Positions 33,943 through 62,942 of a DNA stretch of 64,000 bases are shown here, piece by piece. Every line of letters starts with the position of its first letter. Positions within the stretch are counted from its first letter, which is position 1. The position numbers and the translations under genes were made by a program. The notes under the pieces were generated by a model. The model searched no databases, was not told the DNA's origin, and worked only from the letters and a program-made list of their open reading frames with translations. The DNA is from an uncultured archaeon (GTDB taxonomy: Archaea; Thermoproteota; Bathyarchaeia; Bathyarchaeales; Bathycorpusculaceae). The DNA is taken from assembly GCA_963810275.1 (NCBI GenBank), contig CAWENF010000019.1:32001-96000 (forward strand). Reading direction: 5' to 3'.

Positions 33943-34626
33943 ACGGATCCATATTCCTATCAAACACTGCGAATTATCTATGAAGTTATTTCATTCATAG
34001 TATGTCTCGTTCTTGTAAGATTCATGATTAAACCCTACCAAGTCACGAAAGAAAGCAGGTACGTGGGATTACCTCTAGGATTCGGATTTCTTGGAGCAAC
34101 CTACCTTTTATCCGCAGTCATATACGCCCAGCCACAGATTTTTGGAAATTCAACAATCTACTTTCAGCTCTTCGTAAGAAACTTTGCGTTCATCTTCCTA
34201 TGTGCAACATATTATTTCTCAAGAAAAAGCCCAGAAAGTACCAGATCACTATGGAACATAACGTTTGGAGGGCTTTTTATAGCTATAATAGCGCTATTTG
34301 TAATACTTAACATACCCGAAATCAGTCTACCAGCCTATCGACTTACGAGTATCTACAGCAGATGTTTTAACTTAATTTGCATCGTTTATATCTGTGCCCA
34401 CACTATTAGGAGTCACTTAGAATCTTCCAATTTAGACACCCTCTGGACGCCTTTCGGATATATTTTTCTTGGAATAAGCCAATACTTGGTAATTATTTTT
34501 GCTTTAGATGGCAGCTTAGCATCGTTCTTCAGTGGCTTAGCATTCCGCTGGGTTGGATTCGCCCTGTTTCTTTACGTGTCCTTCAAATCATTTTACAGCC
34601 TTAAAAAAAAGGAGCGTAACAAATGA
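33943..34626 (+). CDS. Multi-pass (about 7 TM) membrane protein; start uncertain (first ATG at 34024)
   Basis: The frame is open from an ACG at 33943 after GGTGAG and adds a further hydrophobic helix. The stop overlaps the wHTH gene. Confidence 0.8.
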   Translation, partial: TDPYSYQTLRIIYEVISFIVCLVLVRFMIKPYQVTKESRYVGLPLGFGFLGATYLLSAVIYAQPQIFGNSTIYFQLFVRNFAFIFLCATYYFSRKSPESTRSLWNITFGGLFIAIIALFVILNIPEISLPAYRLTSIYSRCFNLICIVYICAHTIRSHLESSNLDTLWTPFGYIFLGISQYLVIIFALDGSLASFFSGLAFRWVGFALFLYVSFKSFYSLKKKERNK

Positions 34627-56723: not shown

Positions 56724-58352
56724 ATGAGTTCACAAGAGAAACTTAAAGCGGCAATTGAAGCAACAATAACGGCAGGTTACCAGCTAAACAGCGAAGCCTT
56801 TGAGTTCCTAATTCAAAACGCCGAAACCAGCGACCCCTTAGCAGTTATGAATTTGGCGCTAGAAAAAATTTCTGGAATTGCCGATAAGCCGATGTTTATT
56901 GAAAAAGAATTTCTTGAAGCAATTATGCAGCAAGCCACCTTAGGATCCACCCAGGTAGTGGTCGAGCAATCCAGACCAGAGGCGCCAGCCTCACTAATGG
57001 AGGAATCCATACCCACTTCTGAGGAAACAGAGCCAAGTTACCAGCGAAAAATAGAAGATCTACAGGCGAGCGAGGTGGAAAACTCTTTTTTCCCCTACGC
57101 CAAAGACATCCCTTCAGAACTAAAAATAATCGACGACTGCACAGGCAAACTAACCTCAAACGGCAGTCTCGAAGAATACGCAGGCTTATTCCAAGACCGC
57201 TTCAAACGCGTCGAAAAAATACTACGCCAAAGAATGGATGTAAAAGCCGCCACGCCACTAACTGAAGCGCTTAAATCGCAGCCTAAAACCAAACTAAAAG
57301 TCATCTGCATGCTAACTGATAGACGGGACTCAAAAAATAACACAATGCTCTCAGTGGAGGACTTGGGAGGCAGTGCAACCATACTGGTTCCACAGAAAGC
57401 ACCTGAAGAAGTGAAAAAGAAGGTTCTTACCCTTTTACCTGATACGGTGTTCTGCGCTGCCGTAGTCAAAACACGCACTAACCTGCTTATGGCTGAAGAT
57501 ATAATTCTGCCCGAAGTAGGACGAAAAATAGTTCAGAAAGCACAGGAACCCATTTACGCCGTGTTAACCTCAGACATTCATGTTGGCAGCACAAAATTTA
57601 CCAAACAAGCGTTCAGAAACTTTATCCTCTGGCTACGCGGCAAATGGGGACAGCCATGGATGCGAGAAATCGCTGGCAGAGTAAAATATCTACTCATAGC
57701 AGGGGACATCGTGGACGGAGTAGGCATCTATCCCGACCAGCAAAAAGAGCTAACCATTCGCGACGTCACCAAACAATACAATTTTGCAATAAAGTATTTA
57801 GAAAAAGTTCCAGACTACATTGAAATCGTTCTTTCCCCAGGCAATCACGATGCCGCACGTAAATCTCAGCCTCAGCCAGCGATCCCCGAAAGCTATCTTG
57901 CCGCAATAAAAGGCAAAAAAAACATTTACTCTGTTGGCAGCCCATGCTACCTCAGCTTGCATGGCATAGAAGTATTGATTTACCATGGTGTAAGTCTAAA
58001 CGACATCATTGGCGTGGTGCCAGGCATGGATAGTAACTTCCCGCAGAAACCAATGAGTTTGCTTATGCAATGTCGACATTTAGCGCCAATGTATGGAGGC
58101 AAAACAATGCTTTCACCAGAAAACCGCGATTATTTGGTTATAGACAGAGTTCCTGACATTTTCCATTCAGGACACATTCACATTTTAGGCTACTGTAAGT
58201 ATCGCGGCGTGCTTGTGGTAAACAGTGGGGGCTGGCAAGATCAAACTGAGTACATGGAAAAAATAGGGTTGATGCCTACACCCGGTAAAGTGCCAGTCGT
58301 TAATTTGCAGACCATGGAAATTCGAGTGCTGGATTTCATGAAGGAACATTAA
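56724..58352 (+). CDS. polB: DNA polymerase D small (exonuclease) subunit DP1
   Basis: SDIHVGS, GDIVDGVGIYP, PGNHD, RHLAP.YG, HSGHIH and NSGGWQ.QT motifs. Confidence 0.97.
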   Translation: MSSQEKLKAAIEATITAGYQLNSEAFEFLIQNAETSDPLAVMNLALEKISGIADKPMFIEKEFLEAIMQQATLGSTQVVVEQSRPEAPASLMEESIPTSEETEPSYQRKIEDLQASEVENSFFPYAKDIPSELKIIDDCTGKLTSNGSLEEYAGLFQDRFKRVEKILRQRMDVKAATPLTEALKSQPKTKLKVICMLTDRRDSKNNTMLSVEDLGGSATILVPQKAPEEVKKKVLTLLPDTVFCAAVVKTRTNLLMAEDIILPEVGRKIVQKAQEPIYAVLTSDIHVGSTKFTKQAFRNFILWLRGKWGQPWMREIAGRVKYLLIAGDIVDGVGIYPDQQKELTIRDVTKQYNFAIKYLEKVPDYIEIVLSPGNHDAARKSQPQPAIPESYLAAIKGKKNIYSVGSPCYLSLHGIEVLIYHGVSLNDIIGVVPGMDSNFPQKPMSLLMQCRHLAPMYGGKTMLSPENRDYLVIDRVPDIFHSGHIHILGYCKYRGVLVVNSGGWQDQTEYMEKIGLMPTPGKVPVVNLQTMEIRVLDFMKEH

Positions 58353-59581
58353 GAATCTGTTTTACGCGTACCTTTAGGTGTATATGCCAGTAAGGGGGCG
58401 AAGCGTGCGTCTTCACTAAACACATCTTTTATGAGGCTGCGGCTGATTTCAAGGCGGATTTTTTTAGTTCTACCATACCTGCCCATGCTTACCACTTTGG
58501 CATTAACCAGTCCCATGGAATCCAACTCGTTAACTAACGTACCCAGTCTGCGTTGTGTAAGAAGTCCCGAGCCTGTTTCGCCACATAGTTCATTATAAAT
58601 GTCATAGATTTCGCCTGTAGTAGCGCTGGACTTGTTTAGATGATAAACACTTAATAGCACAAGTTTTGACTGGAGGGTCAAGTTTTTGAGGGCGTCAATG
58701 ACACGGTTGTGCTCTATGTGTTTTTCAGCTTGACGTACATGCTCTTCAGAGACCACTTTTAGTCCTTGGCGTTCGGCGACTTCACCTGCAACACGAAGCA
58801 AATCCAAGGCGCGACGTGCGTCTCCATGTTCAGCTGCGGCTAGTGCAGAAGATATGCTTAAAGCCGAGTCGGAGAGTGCACCTTCTTGAAAGGCTATTTT
58901 AGAACGTTCAAAGAGGATGTTTCTTAACTCGCCTGCATCATAAGGGCGGAAAACTAACTCTTCTTCACTCAGTGAACTAAACACACGGGGGTCGAGAAAT
59001 TCTTTGAGGCGCAGGTCATTTGAGATACCTATTATTGAGACTTTGCTTTTATGTAGGGTTTCGTTGATGCGGGTGAGTTCGTACATGAAGGAGTCGCCGC
59101 GGTCTTTGATTAAGGCATCTACCTCATCAAGCACTATTATGAAAATTATGTGTGATTGGTCCAGTCCACTTCGGAACCTGTCAATTACTTCACCTACAGA
59201 GAGGCCTGTAAATGGTATAGATAAACCTACACTTTGACTTAGACTGGCAAATACGCGGTACTCAGAGCCGGTCATGCGGCAGTTTATGTAGCAGAATTTT
59301 ATTTTGGCTCCATACTCTTTTGCTTTGGATTCAAGATGACTTAGAACATATTTTGTGACCGCGGTTTTTCCTGTGCCAGTTTTGCCGTATATGAATATAT
59401 TTGAGCATCGTGCGTCGCGAAGCACTGGCGCAACTGTGGAGCCCAAGAGCCTTATTTGGTCTTCTCTGTGAGGTAACTTTTCAGGTAGATAATCGTGTCT
59501 TAGAACTTCACGGTCTTTGAAGACTTTGGCGCCTTTAACAAATTTGTCGAATACGTCATCTAGTACATTTGAGTTACCCAT
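58349..59581 (-). CDS. cdc6: Orc1/Cdc6 replication initiator
   Basis: GKTGTGKT, VLDEVD, HGDARRALDLLR and GRYGRT wing motifs. Confidence 0.98.
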   Translation of the reverse strand: MGNSNVLDDVFDKFVKGAKVFKDREVLRHDYLPEKLPHREDQIRLLGSTVAPVLRDARCSNIFIYGKTGTGKTAVTKYVLSHLESKAKEYGAKIKFCYINCRMTGSEYRVFASLSQSVGLSIPFTGLSVGEVIDRFRSGLDQSHIIFIIVLDEVDALIKDRGDSFMYELTRINETLHKSKVSIIGISNDLRLKEFLDPRVFSSLSEEELVFRPYDAGELRNILFERSKIAFQEGALSDSALSISSALAAAEHGDARRALDLLRVAGEVAERQGLKVVSEEHVRQAEKHIEHNRVIDALKNLTLQSKLVLLSVYHLNKSSATTGEIYDIYNELCGETGSGLLTQRRLGTLVNELDSMGLVNAKVVSMGRYGRTKKIRLEISRSLIKDVFSEDARFAPLLAYTPKGTRKTDS

Positions 59582-59610
59582 TATCCCGCTTCCATTTTTT
59601 TCAGAGGTAC

Positions 59611-60189
59611 AACCGTTATTTCTACTGGAACAGATAAAGGCTGTAGTACAAAAAACTTGTTAAAAACAACAATATTTCTTAAAGAAGATGAAAATAACAA
59701 GCAACAACAAAGCGATGCACACACCCCAAGGTTTCGACTGGAAAAATCAGGTTAAATTAAATAAAATCCTATTATTACTCTATACAAAAACTATACTCTT
59801 TATAATAAATTAATTTTTTATATATTAATAATATCTATCCAAAAAATTAAACTGAATCACTGCAAAGTTTTTTTCTGACTTTCCTGAACTCTTTTTTGTC
59901 GCAAAATCCTCCAAAGGAAACATAGGGGTGTGCCTGTGCCATAAAAACCATTGAAAAAAGGGCTAAACTGTCCATGAACTTACTTGAACAACTAAACTAC
60001 TTATCCCTCTTTGTGTAAAACATCTTGAAGCCACTTACCTTGAATTTTTTGCACTGCTTCACATTCACAAAGTTGTGAATACATGTGAAATACCAAAAAA
60101 TCTGACAGCTTAAAACGGCTCTTTTCCTCCGAATTACTATTATTCTGTCACTTAACTGTGAATAAGCCACCCCTACGTTTCTACTGGAA
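59611..60189. promoter_or_regulatory. Replication origin oriC: four ORBs and an AT-rich DUE
   Basis: ORBs at 59611-59631(-) GTTCCAGTAGAAATAACGGTT, 59724-59743(-) TTCCAGTCGAAACCTTGGGG, 59909-59928(+) CTCCAAAGGAAACATAGGGG and 60170-60189(-) TTCCAGTAGAAACGTAGGGG; AT-rich tract at about 59752-59850. Confidence 0.92.
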
Positions 60190-60870
60190 AATCAAAACAG
60201 ACGCACAGCAATTGAGCTTTTTCCATTTCCTAAATTTGTGAAGCTTGTAAAACCAAAAAATGGTTAAATTATGGTTAAAAAGCATAAATAACAATGAAAT
60301 AAGCTTTTTACATTACCTTATTTCACCATCACAGTTATATCCTGTGAAACACAGAGTTTGTGAACAACCTATAGGTGAACGTATAGTGCCGGCCCGCAAA
60401 ATGCGCGTGGAGCTCTTCGACAGCGATGGCAATCGATATACCATTGCGTTTGAGGGTCAAGTGACCCGTGATAAAGCTCTGCGGCTGCTTGATCTTGTTG
60501 AGCTTTTAGGCGGCACTCAAGGCGAAGTACCTACGGCAAGCGCTCCAGCAATGCAGAATCGTTCGCTGTCGCGTTTTGAAAAAGTCCAGTTAATTATTCA
60601 GAAAAATTTCCCACTAATCTGGTTTAATTCGAAAGACATCCAATCTCTGTATGAACAGGAGCTAAAAGAACCCGTTAGCTTAAGCACAATTTCCACTTAC
60701 CTTTCCAGAATGGCCACTAAGGGGCTTTTGATGCGAACTGGGACATCAAACAATCTGAAATATAAAACTGCACCAAATATTCCAGTTGCCACCCTTAAAC
60801 AGCGAATAAAGTAGTTCACAACACTTCAAATTTACTTCACAACTGTTCACATCAAGCCTGTTTTTGTGAA
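60058..60870. repeat. Clustered GTGAA/TTCAC pentamers flanking the 60386 gene
   Basis: 14 intergenic copies, e.g. at 60058, 60064, 60075, 60085, 60344, 60360, 60815, 60836, 60846 and 60866. Confidence 0.65.
60386..60814 (+). CDS. oriC-adjacent protein with C-terminal winged HTH
   Basis: GGTGA RBS with GTG start; WFNSKDIQ..YE...VSLSTISTYLSRM..KGLL.R.G...KY. Confidence 0.85.
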   Translation: MPARKMRVELFDSDGNRYTIAFEGQVTRDKALRLLDLVELLGGTQGEVPTASAPAMQNRSLSRFEKVQLIIQKNFPLIWFNSKDIQSLYEQELKEPVSLSTISTYLSRMATKGLLMRTGTSNNLKYKTAPNIPVATLKQRIK

Positions 60871-60889
60871 ACCAAAAAAAAAGCTGAAA

Positions 60890-61690
60890 CTACTGGGAAG
60901 CCGCCGAGTTTTCAACCCGTTGCAGCAGTGCTTCCATCTCCTTCTTGATGCTATAACGGAAAGGAATCTTGCCGGCTTCCCTTTCCAAATATCCTTCCTC
61001 ATAAAGCTTCTTCATAAGCCGCGCCGTGTGCTCGCGACTAAGCTGTACCCTCTCCTTAATCTCTGGTGCAGTCTTTGAGCCCTCTTTTGAGAGCATCTCC
61101 AATACAACAATCTCCGTCTCCGTCAAAGCGGCTAGTGCTTTATCCCTCTTAATGGGTATAGGCGGCAACGCCATCTCCACCGGTGCAGTCTGCACCTGAA
61201 TCTGCGGCGGGGTCGCGGCTATCTTCTCAATTTTCTCCTCATATTCCGAGATTTTGAATTTGAGAGTTTCCTGAATAACTTCAATTTCTTTGAGTTTAGC
61301 CTCTAATCCCGTTAAGCCAGAAAGCACTGTGGCGTTGTTTTGCGTGTTTTCTACTAGCTTCTCTGTGACGGTCTGTGCCATGTCTTGGTAGGATATGTTT
61401 AGGCTGCTGATTTGGCTGGTTAGGGGTTCTAATTGTTTTTCTATGGATTCATATTTTCGGTAACTCAATTCCGAGGTCGTGAAGGCGCCGTCAACTTTAG
61501 ATGTCATAGAATCAAACTTTGCTGATTCTCGTTTAAGTTCACGGTCAAAACTCAGCACAATATCTTGGATGAAATCTCTAGCTTTGACATATTCTTGGTG
61601 AGCGAGGCGTATTTGCTTGTAGTATTGGTAGGCTGAAACTGCGGTTACAGCTAATAAAATGCTTAAGATTACTGGTGTGAGGTCAACCGT
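60890..61690 (-). CDS. Membrane-anchored coiled-coil protein with C-terminal winged HTH (start uncertain)
   Basis: The frame is open for 44 codons upstream of the listed GTG and encodes VILSILLAVTAVSAY. The middle is heptad-rich; the C-terminus has LTETEIVVL...SREHTARLMKKLYEEGYLER...PFRY. Confidence 0.85.
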   Translation of the reverse strand, partial: TVDLTPVILSILLAVTAVSAYQYYKQIRLAHQEYVKARDFIQDIVLSFDRELKRESAKFDSMTSKVDGAFTTSELSYRKYESIEKQLEPLTSQISSLNISYQDMAQTVTEKLVENTQNNATVLSGLTGLEAKLKEIEVIQETLKFKISEYEEKIEKIAATPPQIQVQTAPVEMALPPIPIKRDKALAALTETEIVVLEMLSKEGSKTAPEIKERVQLSREHTARLMKKLYEEGYLEREAGKIPFRYSIKKEMEALLQRVENSAASQ

Positions 61691-61845
61691 GATGTTCTCC
61701 CCCTGTGATTTTGCCGTGATTTAACCGTGATAACCATGTGATTCGCCGTGATTTCAACAGTTGCATCACACATCACATTATTTTCCATGAAAATATAAGG
61801 TTATCGGTCACTTAATCCAGTAATAACATGACATCACACATCACA
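61689..61845. repeat. Phased GTGAT array plus duplicated CATCACACATCACA
   Basis: GTGAT at 61689, 61705, 61716, 61727, 61738 and 61748; 14-mer at 61764 and 61832. Confidence 0.85.
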
Positions 61846-62002
61846 ATACTTTAACGTTTTATAAGTAGCCTAATATTAATGCTTACAGAAAGCTTGAATT
61901 AGCCTCATTTTGACTTTTAGAGCCTTTAAAAAGACGTAATTTTAGACATAATTTTCATCATAAAAAGAGGAAAAAAAGGATAGAAACCTGTGATTTGTGA
62001 CG

Positions 62003-62482
62003 TCACAAATCCTCTTTTGAGGGGCTAGAAAGCCGTTTTAGGCTTGTTTCGAGCTCATTTCGGATGATTTCTATGACTTTTATATGATCTTTTAGTTCCT
62101 CTTCCTTGCTAGGTACATCCTGGTGAGCCTCCACATATTCGTGCAGTTTATTGGCTATTTCGAGATACGGGTCAAGAGTTGTGGTCTCAAAAACCCCCAA
62201 ATAACCTAGAAGTAGCACTGTATAGATGGATTTAATGACGTTTTCACGGGACTGTTTTAAAGTCCTATTAAAGCTTCCGCGGCTTATTTTAGCCTTAGTT
62301 AGTCGTAAGGCTGCTTTTTCATCGTAATTTAGCTGTTTCCCTGATAAATTCTCCGATAAAACGTCAATAAGGAGTGTTTCTAACTGGGTTTTTGTTAGTT
62401 GGCTATTTTTAGCCAGTATTTGAACAATGGGGTCGTTTAATGCCCCGTTTAACCATGCTGTTACGCCGTCTCTTAGCTTCAA
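62003..62482 (-). CDS. Hypothetical protein with putative HTH
   Basis: GGAGG RBS; LTKTQLETL...ISRGSFNRTLKQSR resembles a sigma-r4/LuxR-type HTH. Confidence 0.8.
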   Translation of the reverse strand: MKLRDGVTAWLNGALNDPIVQILAKNSQLTKTQLETLLIDVLSENLSGKQLNYDEKAALRLTKAKISRGSFNRTLKQSRENVIKSIYTVLLLGYLGVFETTTLDPYLEIANKLHEYVEAHQDVPSKEEELKDHIKVIEIIRNELETSLKRLSSPSKEDL

Positions 62483-62844: not shown

Positions 62845-62942
62845 CTCACATGTGACATCGCCAAAAACCCCGTGACCTCACCAAATCACGCCAAAATCAC
62901 CGTGATTTCACCCAAATCACAGCCTTGTGATGCACCTGTGAT
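62845..62942. repeat. Second ATCAC/GTGAT array
   Basis: (A/T)TCAC at 62885, 62896, 62907 and 62916; GTGAT at 62902, 62927 and 62938; GTGAC at 62852 and 62872. Confidence 0.8.

Follow-up and report, generated by a model that had tools for sequence, protein, structure and literature searches.

In Bacillus subtilis, Noc and RacA combine a sequence-specific DNA-binding domain with a part that targets the membrane or the pole, and their sites are origin-proximal; the targeting part of Noc is an amphipathic helix, not a membrane span. Regulators of the ToxR/CadC type carry an N-terminal cytoplasmic winged helix-turn-helix (wHTH) domain, one span, and a C-terminal periplasmic sensor. In ArnR and ArnR1, the HTH is N-terminal, the membrane helices are C-terminal, and a sensing module lies between them. 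These two proteins of Sulfolobus acidocaldarius are described as membrane-bound DNA-binding regulators of archaellum and pili gene promoters (PMC6396743). Proteins with a membrane helix and a DNA-binding domain in one chain have been surveyed as transmembrane transcription regulators, or TTRs (Demey et al. 2023, PMC10269533); single-pass proteins make up the largest class, an enrichment is seen in Thermoproteota, and the survey treats TTRs as sensors of extracellular information. A non-initiator DNA-binding protein tied to the origin is described from the same phylum, namely, UBP, with its ucm motif at Sulfolobus origins (PMC12141716). It is soluble and saddle-shaped with beta-hairpins, has hundreds of sites, and contacts MCM. 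With regard to translation starts, reviews list GUG and UUG as permitted alternatives in archaea (PMC4705826), and in ribosome profiling of Haloferax, about 30% of the putative alternative starts were near-cognate and were set aside (PMC7261190). Initiation at ACG is described for eukaryotes and their viruses (PMC3105428), where, as at the locus reported here, the ACG lies in a favorable context and relatives have ATG. For archaea, our literature search turned up no description of conserved ACG starts.

The gene studied here lies in a 64,000-nt stretch of a bathyarchaeal contig, which is called the window below. Its predicted product has a membrane helix at residues 4 to 24 and a wHTH at residues 182 to 263, which is the reverse of the ToxR/CadC-type order and also of the ArnR/ArnR1 order; the part in between is a plain heptad rod. 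The join of DNA-binding and membrane parts is similar to that in Noc and RacA, but the folds are unrelated and the DNA sites here are candidates. Membrane placement is shared with ArnR and ArnR1 (PMC6396743). As in the TTRs, membrane helix and DNA-binding domain are in one protein; however, only about three residues would lie outside, which does not fit a sensor of extracellular information, and the family is further set apart by its long coiled-coil stalk and by its constant position next to oriC. It is not named in the sections of the survey drawn on here (PMC10269533). The wHTH core matches the MarR family (PF01047; PDB 2a61, 3bj6, 1z91), whose members are soluble homodimers held by flanking helices, whereas here a linker, a stalk, and a membrane helix are in the place of those helices. 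UBP, as described, has neither a membrane helix nor a wHTH (PMC12141716). No report of this membrane-anchored wHTH family was found in the literature.

The protein and its membrane anchor

The called ORF on the minus strand starts at GTG 61558 and encodes a product of 222 aa, and a protein database entry (P0003) has the identical 222-aa form. The stop-to-stop frame, however, extends over 60890..61720 (minus strand, 276 codons) and is open above the called start up to 61720; between 61558 and the stop at 61721-61723 it lacks any in-frame ATG, GTG, or TTG. The upstream part translates as ...GENITVDLTPVILSILLAVTAVSAYQYYKQIR-LAHQEY... (longer read, GENITVDLTPVILSILLAVTAVSAYQYYKQIRLAHQEY), which agrees with the translation given in an earlier, sequence-only reading of the window. 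This genome has one copy of the gene. The features assigned to it are as follows.

60890..61690, minus strand: proposed full CDS of a membrane-anchored coiled-coil wHTH protein, 266 codons plus stop (from the open frame, the orthologue alignment, and the start column)
61697..61703, minus strand: SD-like GGGGGAG; orthologues have GAGGTG, GAAGTG, or GAGGGG at the same position
61688..61690, minus strand: ACG at the start-codon column, the proposed initiation codon; other genera have ATG, GTG, or TTG here, and the spacing from the SD-like motif is 6 nt
61619..61681, minus strand: predicted transmembrane helix, residues 4-24 (LTPVILSILLAVTAVSAYQYY), pLDDT 88-96
61556..61558, minus strand: GTG of the gene call; the codons at this column in 102 loci are GTG 51, GTT 23, GTA 15, GTC 8, ATT 3, and ATA 2
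61214..61618, minus strand: basic juxtamembrane segment and heptad-rich helical stalk, residues 25-159, with helices to 115 and 122-159 (from alignment, AlphaFold2, and periodicity)
61148..61213, minus strand: Pro-rich flexible linker, residues 160-181, pLDDT 41; its end, PIPIKRDKAL, is nearly invariant
60902..61147, minus strand: C-terminal wHTH, residues 182-263, with the invariant LSREHTARLMKK (Pfam MarR/TrmB/HTH_27; Foldseek MarR and ArsR/SmtB)

We consider this anatomy of helix, stalk, linker, and wHTH to be very probable. The anchor helix of the window protein consists of 21 uncharged residues with an acidic N-terminal tip and a basic C-terminal flank, and its Kyte-Doolittle 19-residue mean is 2.16, compared to 1.40 to 3.12 across the loci, which is in the membrane-helix range. 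All 94 distinct family-level orthologues begin with x-x-[D/E], the first three residues having a net charge of -1, and in all of them the uncharged run that follows is 21 to 25 residues long; the next 15 residues contain, on average, 5.5 K+R versus 2.7 D+E. The sequence-only reading had described a transmembrane helix followed by basic residues and, by the positive-inside rule, had placed the rod and the wHTH in the cytoplasm, and the charge pattern common to all 94 supports both points. An acidic tip, a long uncharged run, and a basic flank fit an N-out, C-in anchor and not a cleaved signal peptide. A signal peptide was rejected because a basic n-region is missing, the uncharged run of 21 to 25 residues is followed by basic ones, and the passenger is a DNA-binding domain, which has to be cytoplasmic. 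We infer, therefore, that the stalk and the wHTH lie in the cytoplasm and about three residues outside. About three residues precede the helix in every one of the 94, as expected from the earlier remark that there is essentially no extracellular sensing domain.

Beyond the family, the anchor helix is retained in 12 of 14 class-level loci, both exceptions belonging to a single family (f29), and in 8 of 10 phylum-level loci. Orthologues lacking a hydrophobic N-terminus, the outcome that the sequence-only reading had named as contrary to its proposal, are therefore confined to two loci at each of these levels, and most lineages have the helix. Since 4 of the 24 distant orthologues do without it, the anchor is dispensable in some lineages, which counts against a tether role.

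The heptad-rich sequence, the Pro-rich linker, and the wHTH that had been read downstream of the helix were borne out by a shuffle test, AlphaFold2, and Pfam. The 3.5-residue hydrophobic periodicity of residues 27 to 159 was equaled by none of 2,000 shuffles, and residues 25 to 56 are the best-conserved part of the stalk. With an alignment of 48 full-length orthologues as input, AlphaFold2 predicted a helix at residues 5 to 115, a second helix at 122 to 159, a disordered segment at 160 to 181, and a winged helix at 182 to 263 (mean pLDDT 80, pTM 0.33; residues 10 to 60, pLDDT 96). Estimated from the helix lengths, the modeled stalk could span roughly 13 to 20 nm. Residues 190 to 240 passed the gathering score of Pfam MarR (PF01047) with 33 bits against a cut-off of 24.6. 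In Foldseek, MarR and ArsR/SmtB chains were matched over about 81 to 88 columns in the low-rmsd matches; for the MarR chains, which are 137 to 152 residues long, E was about 2e-4 and the TM-score on the target 0.45 to 0.51. The MarR dimerization helices are absent: the linker and stalk precede the wHTH, and only three residues follow it. Dimerization of the protein is presumed, and a homodimer prediction for the full protein, with a score of 0.14 against a mark of 0.42, counts neither for nor against a dimer.

Origin neighborhood, repeat arrays, and possible action on DNA

The gene was found in 109 of 121 sampled genomes of the family, including 67 of the 68 high-quality ones, and nearly all full-length matches in the family search begin at query residues 1 to 16. 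Across the class, matches were obtained in 100 of 151 Bathyarchaeia genomes, and 14 distant class-level loci show 25 to 56% identity to the window protein over the aligned part. The gene lies 0.7 to 1.3 kb from the replication origin, which is placed between orc1/cdc6 (58349-59581; Pfam) and orf184, a small wHTH-like gene (60260-60814); the PolD small subunit gene comes next after cdc6. This interval contains ORB-like repeats at 59619-59630, 59722-59745, 59910-59932 (inverted), and 60168-60191, which flank an AT-rich stretch at about 59770-59850. The order in most of 80 loci is CN-hydrolase, orf159, this wHTH gene, orf184 (convergent), oriC, cdc6, and the gene for the PolD small subunit; orf159 is a neighbor in 79 of the 80, orf184 in 76, and cdc6, within 4 kb, in 71. 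All 14 class-level loci have cdc6 or the PolD small subunit gene at most 15 kb away. Even at the phylum level, 8 of 10 loci, the same eight that have the anchor helix, have the wHTH gene together with orf184, cdc6, and the PolD small subunit gene, and 6 of these 8 also have orf159. Co-occurrence with orf159 is not strict, since orf159 is present in 120 of 151 class genomes, including families in which the wHTH gene was not found.

One phylum-level locus, from an ammonia oxidizer, has an ORF identical to the NCBI entry "winged helix DNA-binding protein [Nitrosarchaeum koreense]". This entry, 201 aa long, starts at an ATG and is annotated with the helix included; 3,685 relatives are found for it at E <=1e-10. 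In a BLASTP comparison with the window protein, only the wHTH aligns (42% identity, E 1e-11).

The DNA upstream of the gene contains a set of repeats and promoter-like elements, and a second array lies farther upstream.

61689..61752, minus strand: six direct ATCAC repeats with spacings of 10, 11, 11, 11, and 16 nt; the ACG codon shares bases with the last copy
61760..61776, minus strand: conserved element GTGATGTGTGATGCAAC, two inverted repeat copies, about 15 nt after the TATA-like sequence
61791-61798, minus strand: TATA-like TTATATTT, upstream of the conserved element
61828-61844, minus strand: degenerate second copy of the conserved element
62852..62942, no strand assigned: second array, with 8 GTGAY/RTCAC sites in 90 nt, on the upstream side of orf159 (62003-62482, minus strand)

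ATCAC/GTGAT occurs here at 9 sites in 150 nt, compared to 0.21 expected, and this is the sole place in 2.26 Mb with at least 7 sites per 150 nt. Across 94 distinct upstream regions, the spacing was 11 nt in 124 of 223 cases and 10 nt in 28; the arrays have two to seven copies and grow in steps of about 11 nt. The motif is also found upstream of the ammonia-oxidizer orthologues, where the start reads GTG ATG. A spacing of one helical turn and an invariant word argue for protein binding on DNA rather than an RNA fold. A search of Rfam with 59500-62100 gave no match, which leaves room for an RNA element. In distant Bathyarchaeia, the arrays flank orf159 and follow it as much as they follow the wHTH gene, remaining at orf159 where the wHTH gene has moved. 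In the loci L123 and L128, the arrays stay with orf159 and the region upstream of the wHTH gene itself has no site or one. Because the arrays stay with orf159 in distant families, orf159 could be the binder; judged from the sequences, the array could thus be bound by either the membrane-anchored wHTH protein or orf159.

How might such a protein act? Because it lacks a sensor domain, we read it as acting on DNA from its place in the membrane, and an anatomy with nothing outside means that it can act only on DNA that comes to the membrane. The best explanation of the locus as a whole, to which we give about an even chance, is a single-pass anchored wHTH protein with an ACG start that acts on origin-proximal DNA from the membrane. 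It would belong to a family retained across Thermoproteota, in Bathyarchaeia as well as ammonia oxidizers. Such a protein of 266 residues would have about three residues outside, a 21-residue span, and, in the cytoplasm, a stalk of about 135 residues, the linker, and a wHTH of MarR/ArsR type. Its translation would begin at ACG 61690-61688, a weak near-cognate start placed 6 nt downstream of the SD-like motif. Its likeliest sites would be the phased GTGAY arrays at its own promoter and that of the neighboring orf159, and binding there might keep down its own synthesis and, in doing so, hold origin-proximal DNA at the membrane. The last of these roles, that of a tether, is a tentative and rather doubtful reading of the sequence data. 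The sequence-only reading had favored a membrane-to-DNA tether over a one-component regulator; the place beside oriC and the phased arrays fit a tether, and are just as compatible with plain autoregulation.

An ordinary transmembrane one-component regulator is a serious possibility in this regard, although on the whole an unlikely one. The protein would then regulate itself and a few genes, including orf159, receive a membrane or partner-protein signal through its conserved juxtamembrane helix, and have no structural role in holding DNA. Proteins with transmembrane and DNA-binding parts are common in archaea, with 1,384 in 367 species and an enrichment in Thermoproteota (PMC10269533). The arrays, moreover, overlap the promoter and the 5' region, as simple autoregulation predicts, and the high conservation of residues 25 to 56 within the stalk suggests a specific contact. 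However, there is no sensor domain; the only strict ATCAC/GTGAT cluster of the genome is at the gene's own locus; and synteny on the origin side at phylum depth is unusual for a plain regulator.

The start codon

The anchored form requires translation to begin upstream of the called GTG, and the likeliest reading is that it does so at ACG 61690-61688, which we consider probable from the comparison of 5' ends. These were examined in 29 loci from the family search and 80 from named Bathyarchaeia assemblies. All orthologues share one layout, in which a TATA-like box is followed by the conserved element GTGATGTGTGATGCAAC, by ATCAC repeats numbering two to seven, and by an SD-like sequence (GAGGTG, GAAGTG, or GGGGAG); the start codon comes 6 nt later, then x-[D/E] and the helix. 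Among 100 classed loci, the start column has ACG in 54 (one row, L088, being misplaced), TTG in 19, ATG in 13, GTG in 13, and CTG in 1; 10 loci are unclassed, 8 missed by the patterns and 2 lacking the D/E landmark. The sequence-only reading had correctly recognized the N-terminal extension and the GGGGGAG ribosome-binding site, which is present as the SD-like motif at 61703-61697. Its start, written "(M)V" at GTT 61687, did not hold, since the comparative data place the start one codon upstream, at the ACG. The family repeatedly has weak start codons (TTG, GTG, CTG, ACG), with which limited synthesis would be in keeping.

Several observations bear on the ACG. First, of the 53 true ACG loci, 45 lack an in-frame ATG, GTG, or TTG between the upstream stop and the ACG, and only 8 have a canonical start in frame farther 5'. 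In nine loci, a stop is just two codons 5' of the ACG (e.g., TAA AAC ACC ACG in L070). Second, the ACG is kept in all 53 distinct sequences of the clade (the window and 52 others). In the same genes, five other conserved Thr columns have ACG in 63 of 265 codons (24%) and draw on all four Thr codons, so that coding for Thr does not by itself account for the fixed third base at the start column. This comparison is confounded in the present gene by the overlap with the ATCAC repeat, since the G could be conserved in part as a constraint on the DNA. The codon after the ACG varies (V, I, F, A, T). Third, a quick maximum-likelihood tree of 94 proteins puts the ACG rows in one clade of 55 (SH-aLRT 93), whose sister clade has TTG or ATG starts. 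Three ATG rows are nested separately within the ACG clade, one of them (L044) as sister to an ACG row (L036), and are read as reversions.

Two other accounts of the 5' end were rejected. The upstream ATG used by some gene calls ("MCDATVK...") is a translation of the conserved element GTGATGTGTGATGCAAC, and the stretch that follows it, ITG/NHG/KSR, is the three frames of the ATCACGG repeat with indels; this ATG is out of frame in the window and closed off by stops in most loci. A frameshift or assembly error at 61680-61700, a region whose reads the sequence-only reading had proposed to check, was rejected on the basis of contigs from two other DNA runs, X1 (61511-61836) and X2 (61284-61702), which are free of gaps and listed differences there, although the runs are perhaps not independent of the source sample. 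The layout is also identical in the 52 other distinct sequences. The sole contig from an RNA library (X7, 61055-61300) is internal to the gene and ends short of the start.

Other genes of this genome also have ACG at the start column. A scan for ORFs of at least 150 codons with at least 20 start-less codons at the head returned 298, and the Thr codons behind an SD-like word in the start-less extensions were ACG 9, ACA 6, ACC 1, and ACT 5, a distribution that is only suggestive. The best candidates were compared with their orthologues. An ABC ATPase gene (C15) has ACG at the column read as TTG in 10 other genera and as ATG in 3; a stop lies four codons upstream, and the next canonical start is beyond Walker A, which it would delete. 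A second gene (C26) has ACG in this genome and in G016 of the same genus, TTG in G030, and ATG in G051, each 6 nt after GGTGA; its 26 remaining rows were not aligned at the start column by the ungapped rule. Two paralogous secreted proteins (C28 and C27) have ACG compared to ATG in G016, and read from the ACG they have a typical signal peptide at the N-terminus. Finally, a membrane protein in the window, called from ATG 34024, has ACG at 33943 (TGA GTA CAA ACG, with GGTGA 6 nt upstream); the alignment is less exact here, the ATG of its homologues being two to four codons away. Initiation at ACG is the likeliest reading because ACG occupies the orthologous start column in at least four more genes of the genome. 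This means that it is not peculiar to the origin-side gene, and the objection from the ATCACG repeat is weakened. A crude genome-wide count of codons behind SD-like motifs gave 0.90-fold for ACG; the count has low power, since even ATG, GTG, and TTG, the true start codons, reached only 1.45- to 1.5-fold. A pattern search of the genome sequence for the 16S rRNA 3' end found nothing, and the anti-SD was thus not read.

An improbable alternative is that the genomic ACG is not read as such, either because the mRNA is edited from C to U to give AUG or because initiation occurs at ATC 61693. Start-codon editing in chloroplasts gives the same pattern, with ACG in several genes where relatives have ATG (PMC9845219), and the codon before the ACG is ATC in 46 of 53 sequences. 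In the other seven, however, that codon is AGC, AGT, GAC, ACC, or ATT; the ATC is only 3 nt from the SD-like motif; and other genes with an ACG start have no ATC before it (TCA ACG, CCA ACG, GAA ACG). We know of no mRNA editing in archaea.

Possible released or soluble forms and implications

The full-length protein might also be a membrane-sequestered factor whose wHTH is freed by cleavage, in the Pro-rich linker or in the membrane helix, and only then acts on DNA. Release of such factors by cleavage is known from other systems, and a disordered linker of 22 residues does separate stalk and wHTH here. Against this, the neighborhood has no conserved protease gene and the nearly invariant end of the linker looks like part of the DNA-binding unit, so we regard release as quite improbable. 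A soluble coiled-coil wHTH protein made from GTG 61558, with the upstream frame untranslated, has hardly any likelihood: this GTG is the first canonical start, but with GTG at its column in only 51 of 102 loci it is not a conserved start, and the protein sequence of the 43 upstream codons is conserved at phylum breadth while synonymous sites vary; in other genera these codons follow a canonical start.

Returning to the anchored protein with its probable ACG start, its annotation suffered because gene callers do not accept ACG as a start and so cut off the anchor. The protein as called is without its membrane anchor, and several other genes lose a Walker A motif or a signal peptide by the same cause. 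Should ACG work as a start codon in these archaea, gene-finding programs must allow for it. Predictions of membrane and secreted proteins in Bathyarchaeia would then be biased, with anchors, signal peptides, and catalytic N-termini systematically truncated, and conserved ACG starts would make start selection in archaea look more like that in eukaryotes.

Found on the origin side across the phylum and lacking a sensor, this family is a concrete candidate for a factor that positions archaeal origins in the cell. It may represent a minimal origin-anchoring system in Thermoproteota, Bathyarchaeia and ammonia oxidizers alike, a speculative idea that we hold to be unlikely as it stands: the rod and wHTH would dock on arrays 1.5 to 3 kb from oriC, the origin would be held at the membrane, and the dosage would be kept very low by weak starts, the ACG among them implying that archaeal ribosomes accept a second-position mismatch as eukaryotic ones do. 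Because the ammonia-oxidizer orthologue is identical to a protein of a named organism, binding sites, localization, and membrane association are directly testable there.

Probable ACG start codons in other genes and possible unusual starts among orthologues

ACG codons were found at the probable start positions of further genes, one in the window and four elsewhere in the source genome (G000), where ACG occupies the start column, that is, the alignment position at which orthologues carry their ATG, GTG or TTG start.

33943-34626, + strand, window: membrane protein, called start ATG 34024
C15:21815-22831, - strand: ABC ATPase, ACG at the start column
C26:69199-70401, - strand: gene with ACG at the start column
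C28:1444-2646, - strand: secreted protein (paralogue of the C27 protein), ACG at the start column
C27:68688-69887, + strand: secreted protein (paralogue of the C28 protein), ACG at the start column

The membrane protein probably starts at ACG 33943, which lies in the 5′ context TGA GTA CAA ACG with GGTGA 6 nt upstream. Starting at the called ATG 34024 removes the first hydrophobic helix, and the homologues have an ATG start 2 to 4 codons from the ACG position. For the genes on contigs C15, C26, C28, and C27, orthologues have ATG or TTG where G000 has ACG, and canonical starts in the G000 genes would remove the Walker A motif or the signal peptide. Contigs C2 and C3 of G000 hold more candidate ACG-start genes.

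Possible unusual starts also occur among orthologues of the anchor gene itself. In L140 and L146, two orthologous loci outside Bathyarchaeia, the frame opens directly after GGAGGTGA, reading TTC CTC ATA GAC; no canonical start precedes the helix, the earliest being a TTG within it. The start there may be another non-canonical codon, such as ATA. L022 has CTG at the start column; in L025 and L027, to which it is closely related, TTG occupies that position.

Anchor and stalk variation

Four orthologue-like proteins (L129, L134, L142, and L145) have the coiled coil and wHTH without a hydrophobic N-terminus, their maximum Kyte-Doolittle 19-residue means being 0.12 to 0.87; L129 and L134 both come from one Bathyarchaeia family. 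Either the anchor was lost in these lineages, or the proteins are paralogues. In the alignment of anchor-gene orthologues, P0020, P0042, and P0070 have a longer stalk, owing to 1 to 3 additional tandem "EYEKAN"-like units that immediately follow the membrane helix.

The neighboring orf159, probable origin, and TTCACAA cluster

62003-62482, - strand: orf159, small protein

This gene, bordered on both sides by GTGAY arrays (helically phased repeats), was detected in 120 of 151 class genomes, with 74 to 95% identity to the window copy across the 79 family-level loci holding it. It matches no Pfam or NCBIfam family; by eye, its central part looks HTH-like.

Between orc1/cdc6 and orf184, the sequence at 59600-60200 is a probable replication origin, with ORB-like repeats of the pattern CACCCC..GTTTC[GT]ACTGGAAAA.

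59619-59630: ORB-like repeat, short copy
59722-59745: ORB-like repeat
~59770-59850: AT-rich stretch, flanked by ORB-like repeats
59910-59932: ORB-like repeat, inverted copy
60168-60191: ORB-like repeat
60064-60870: TTCACAA/TTGTGAA, 7 copies
60064-60079: palindrome TTCACAAAGTTGTGAA, part of the TTCACAA/TTGTGAA cluster

The TTCACAA/TTGTGAA cluster is the sole site in the genome with at least 4 copies per 300 nt. From the anchor-gene stop to cdc6, the motif's density is 2.93 per kb compared to 0.20 outside, and this interval is enriched in 66 of 66 orthologous loci. The cluster may be an orf184 operator or an origin element.
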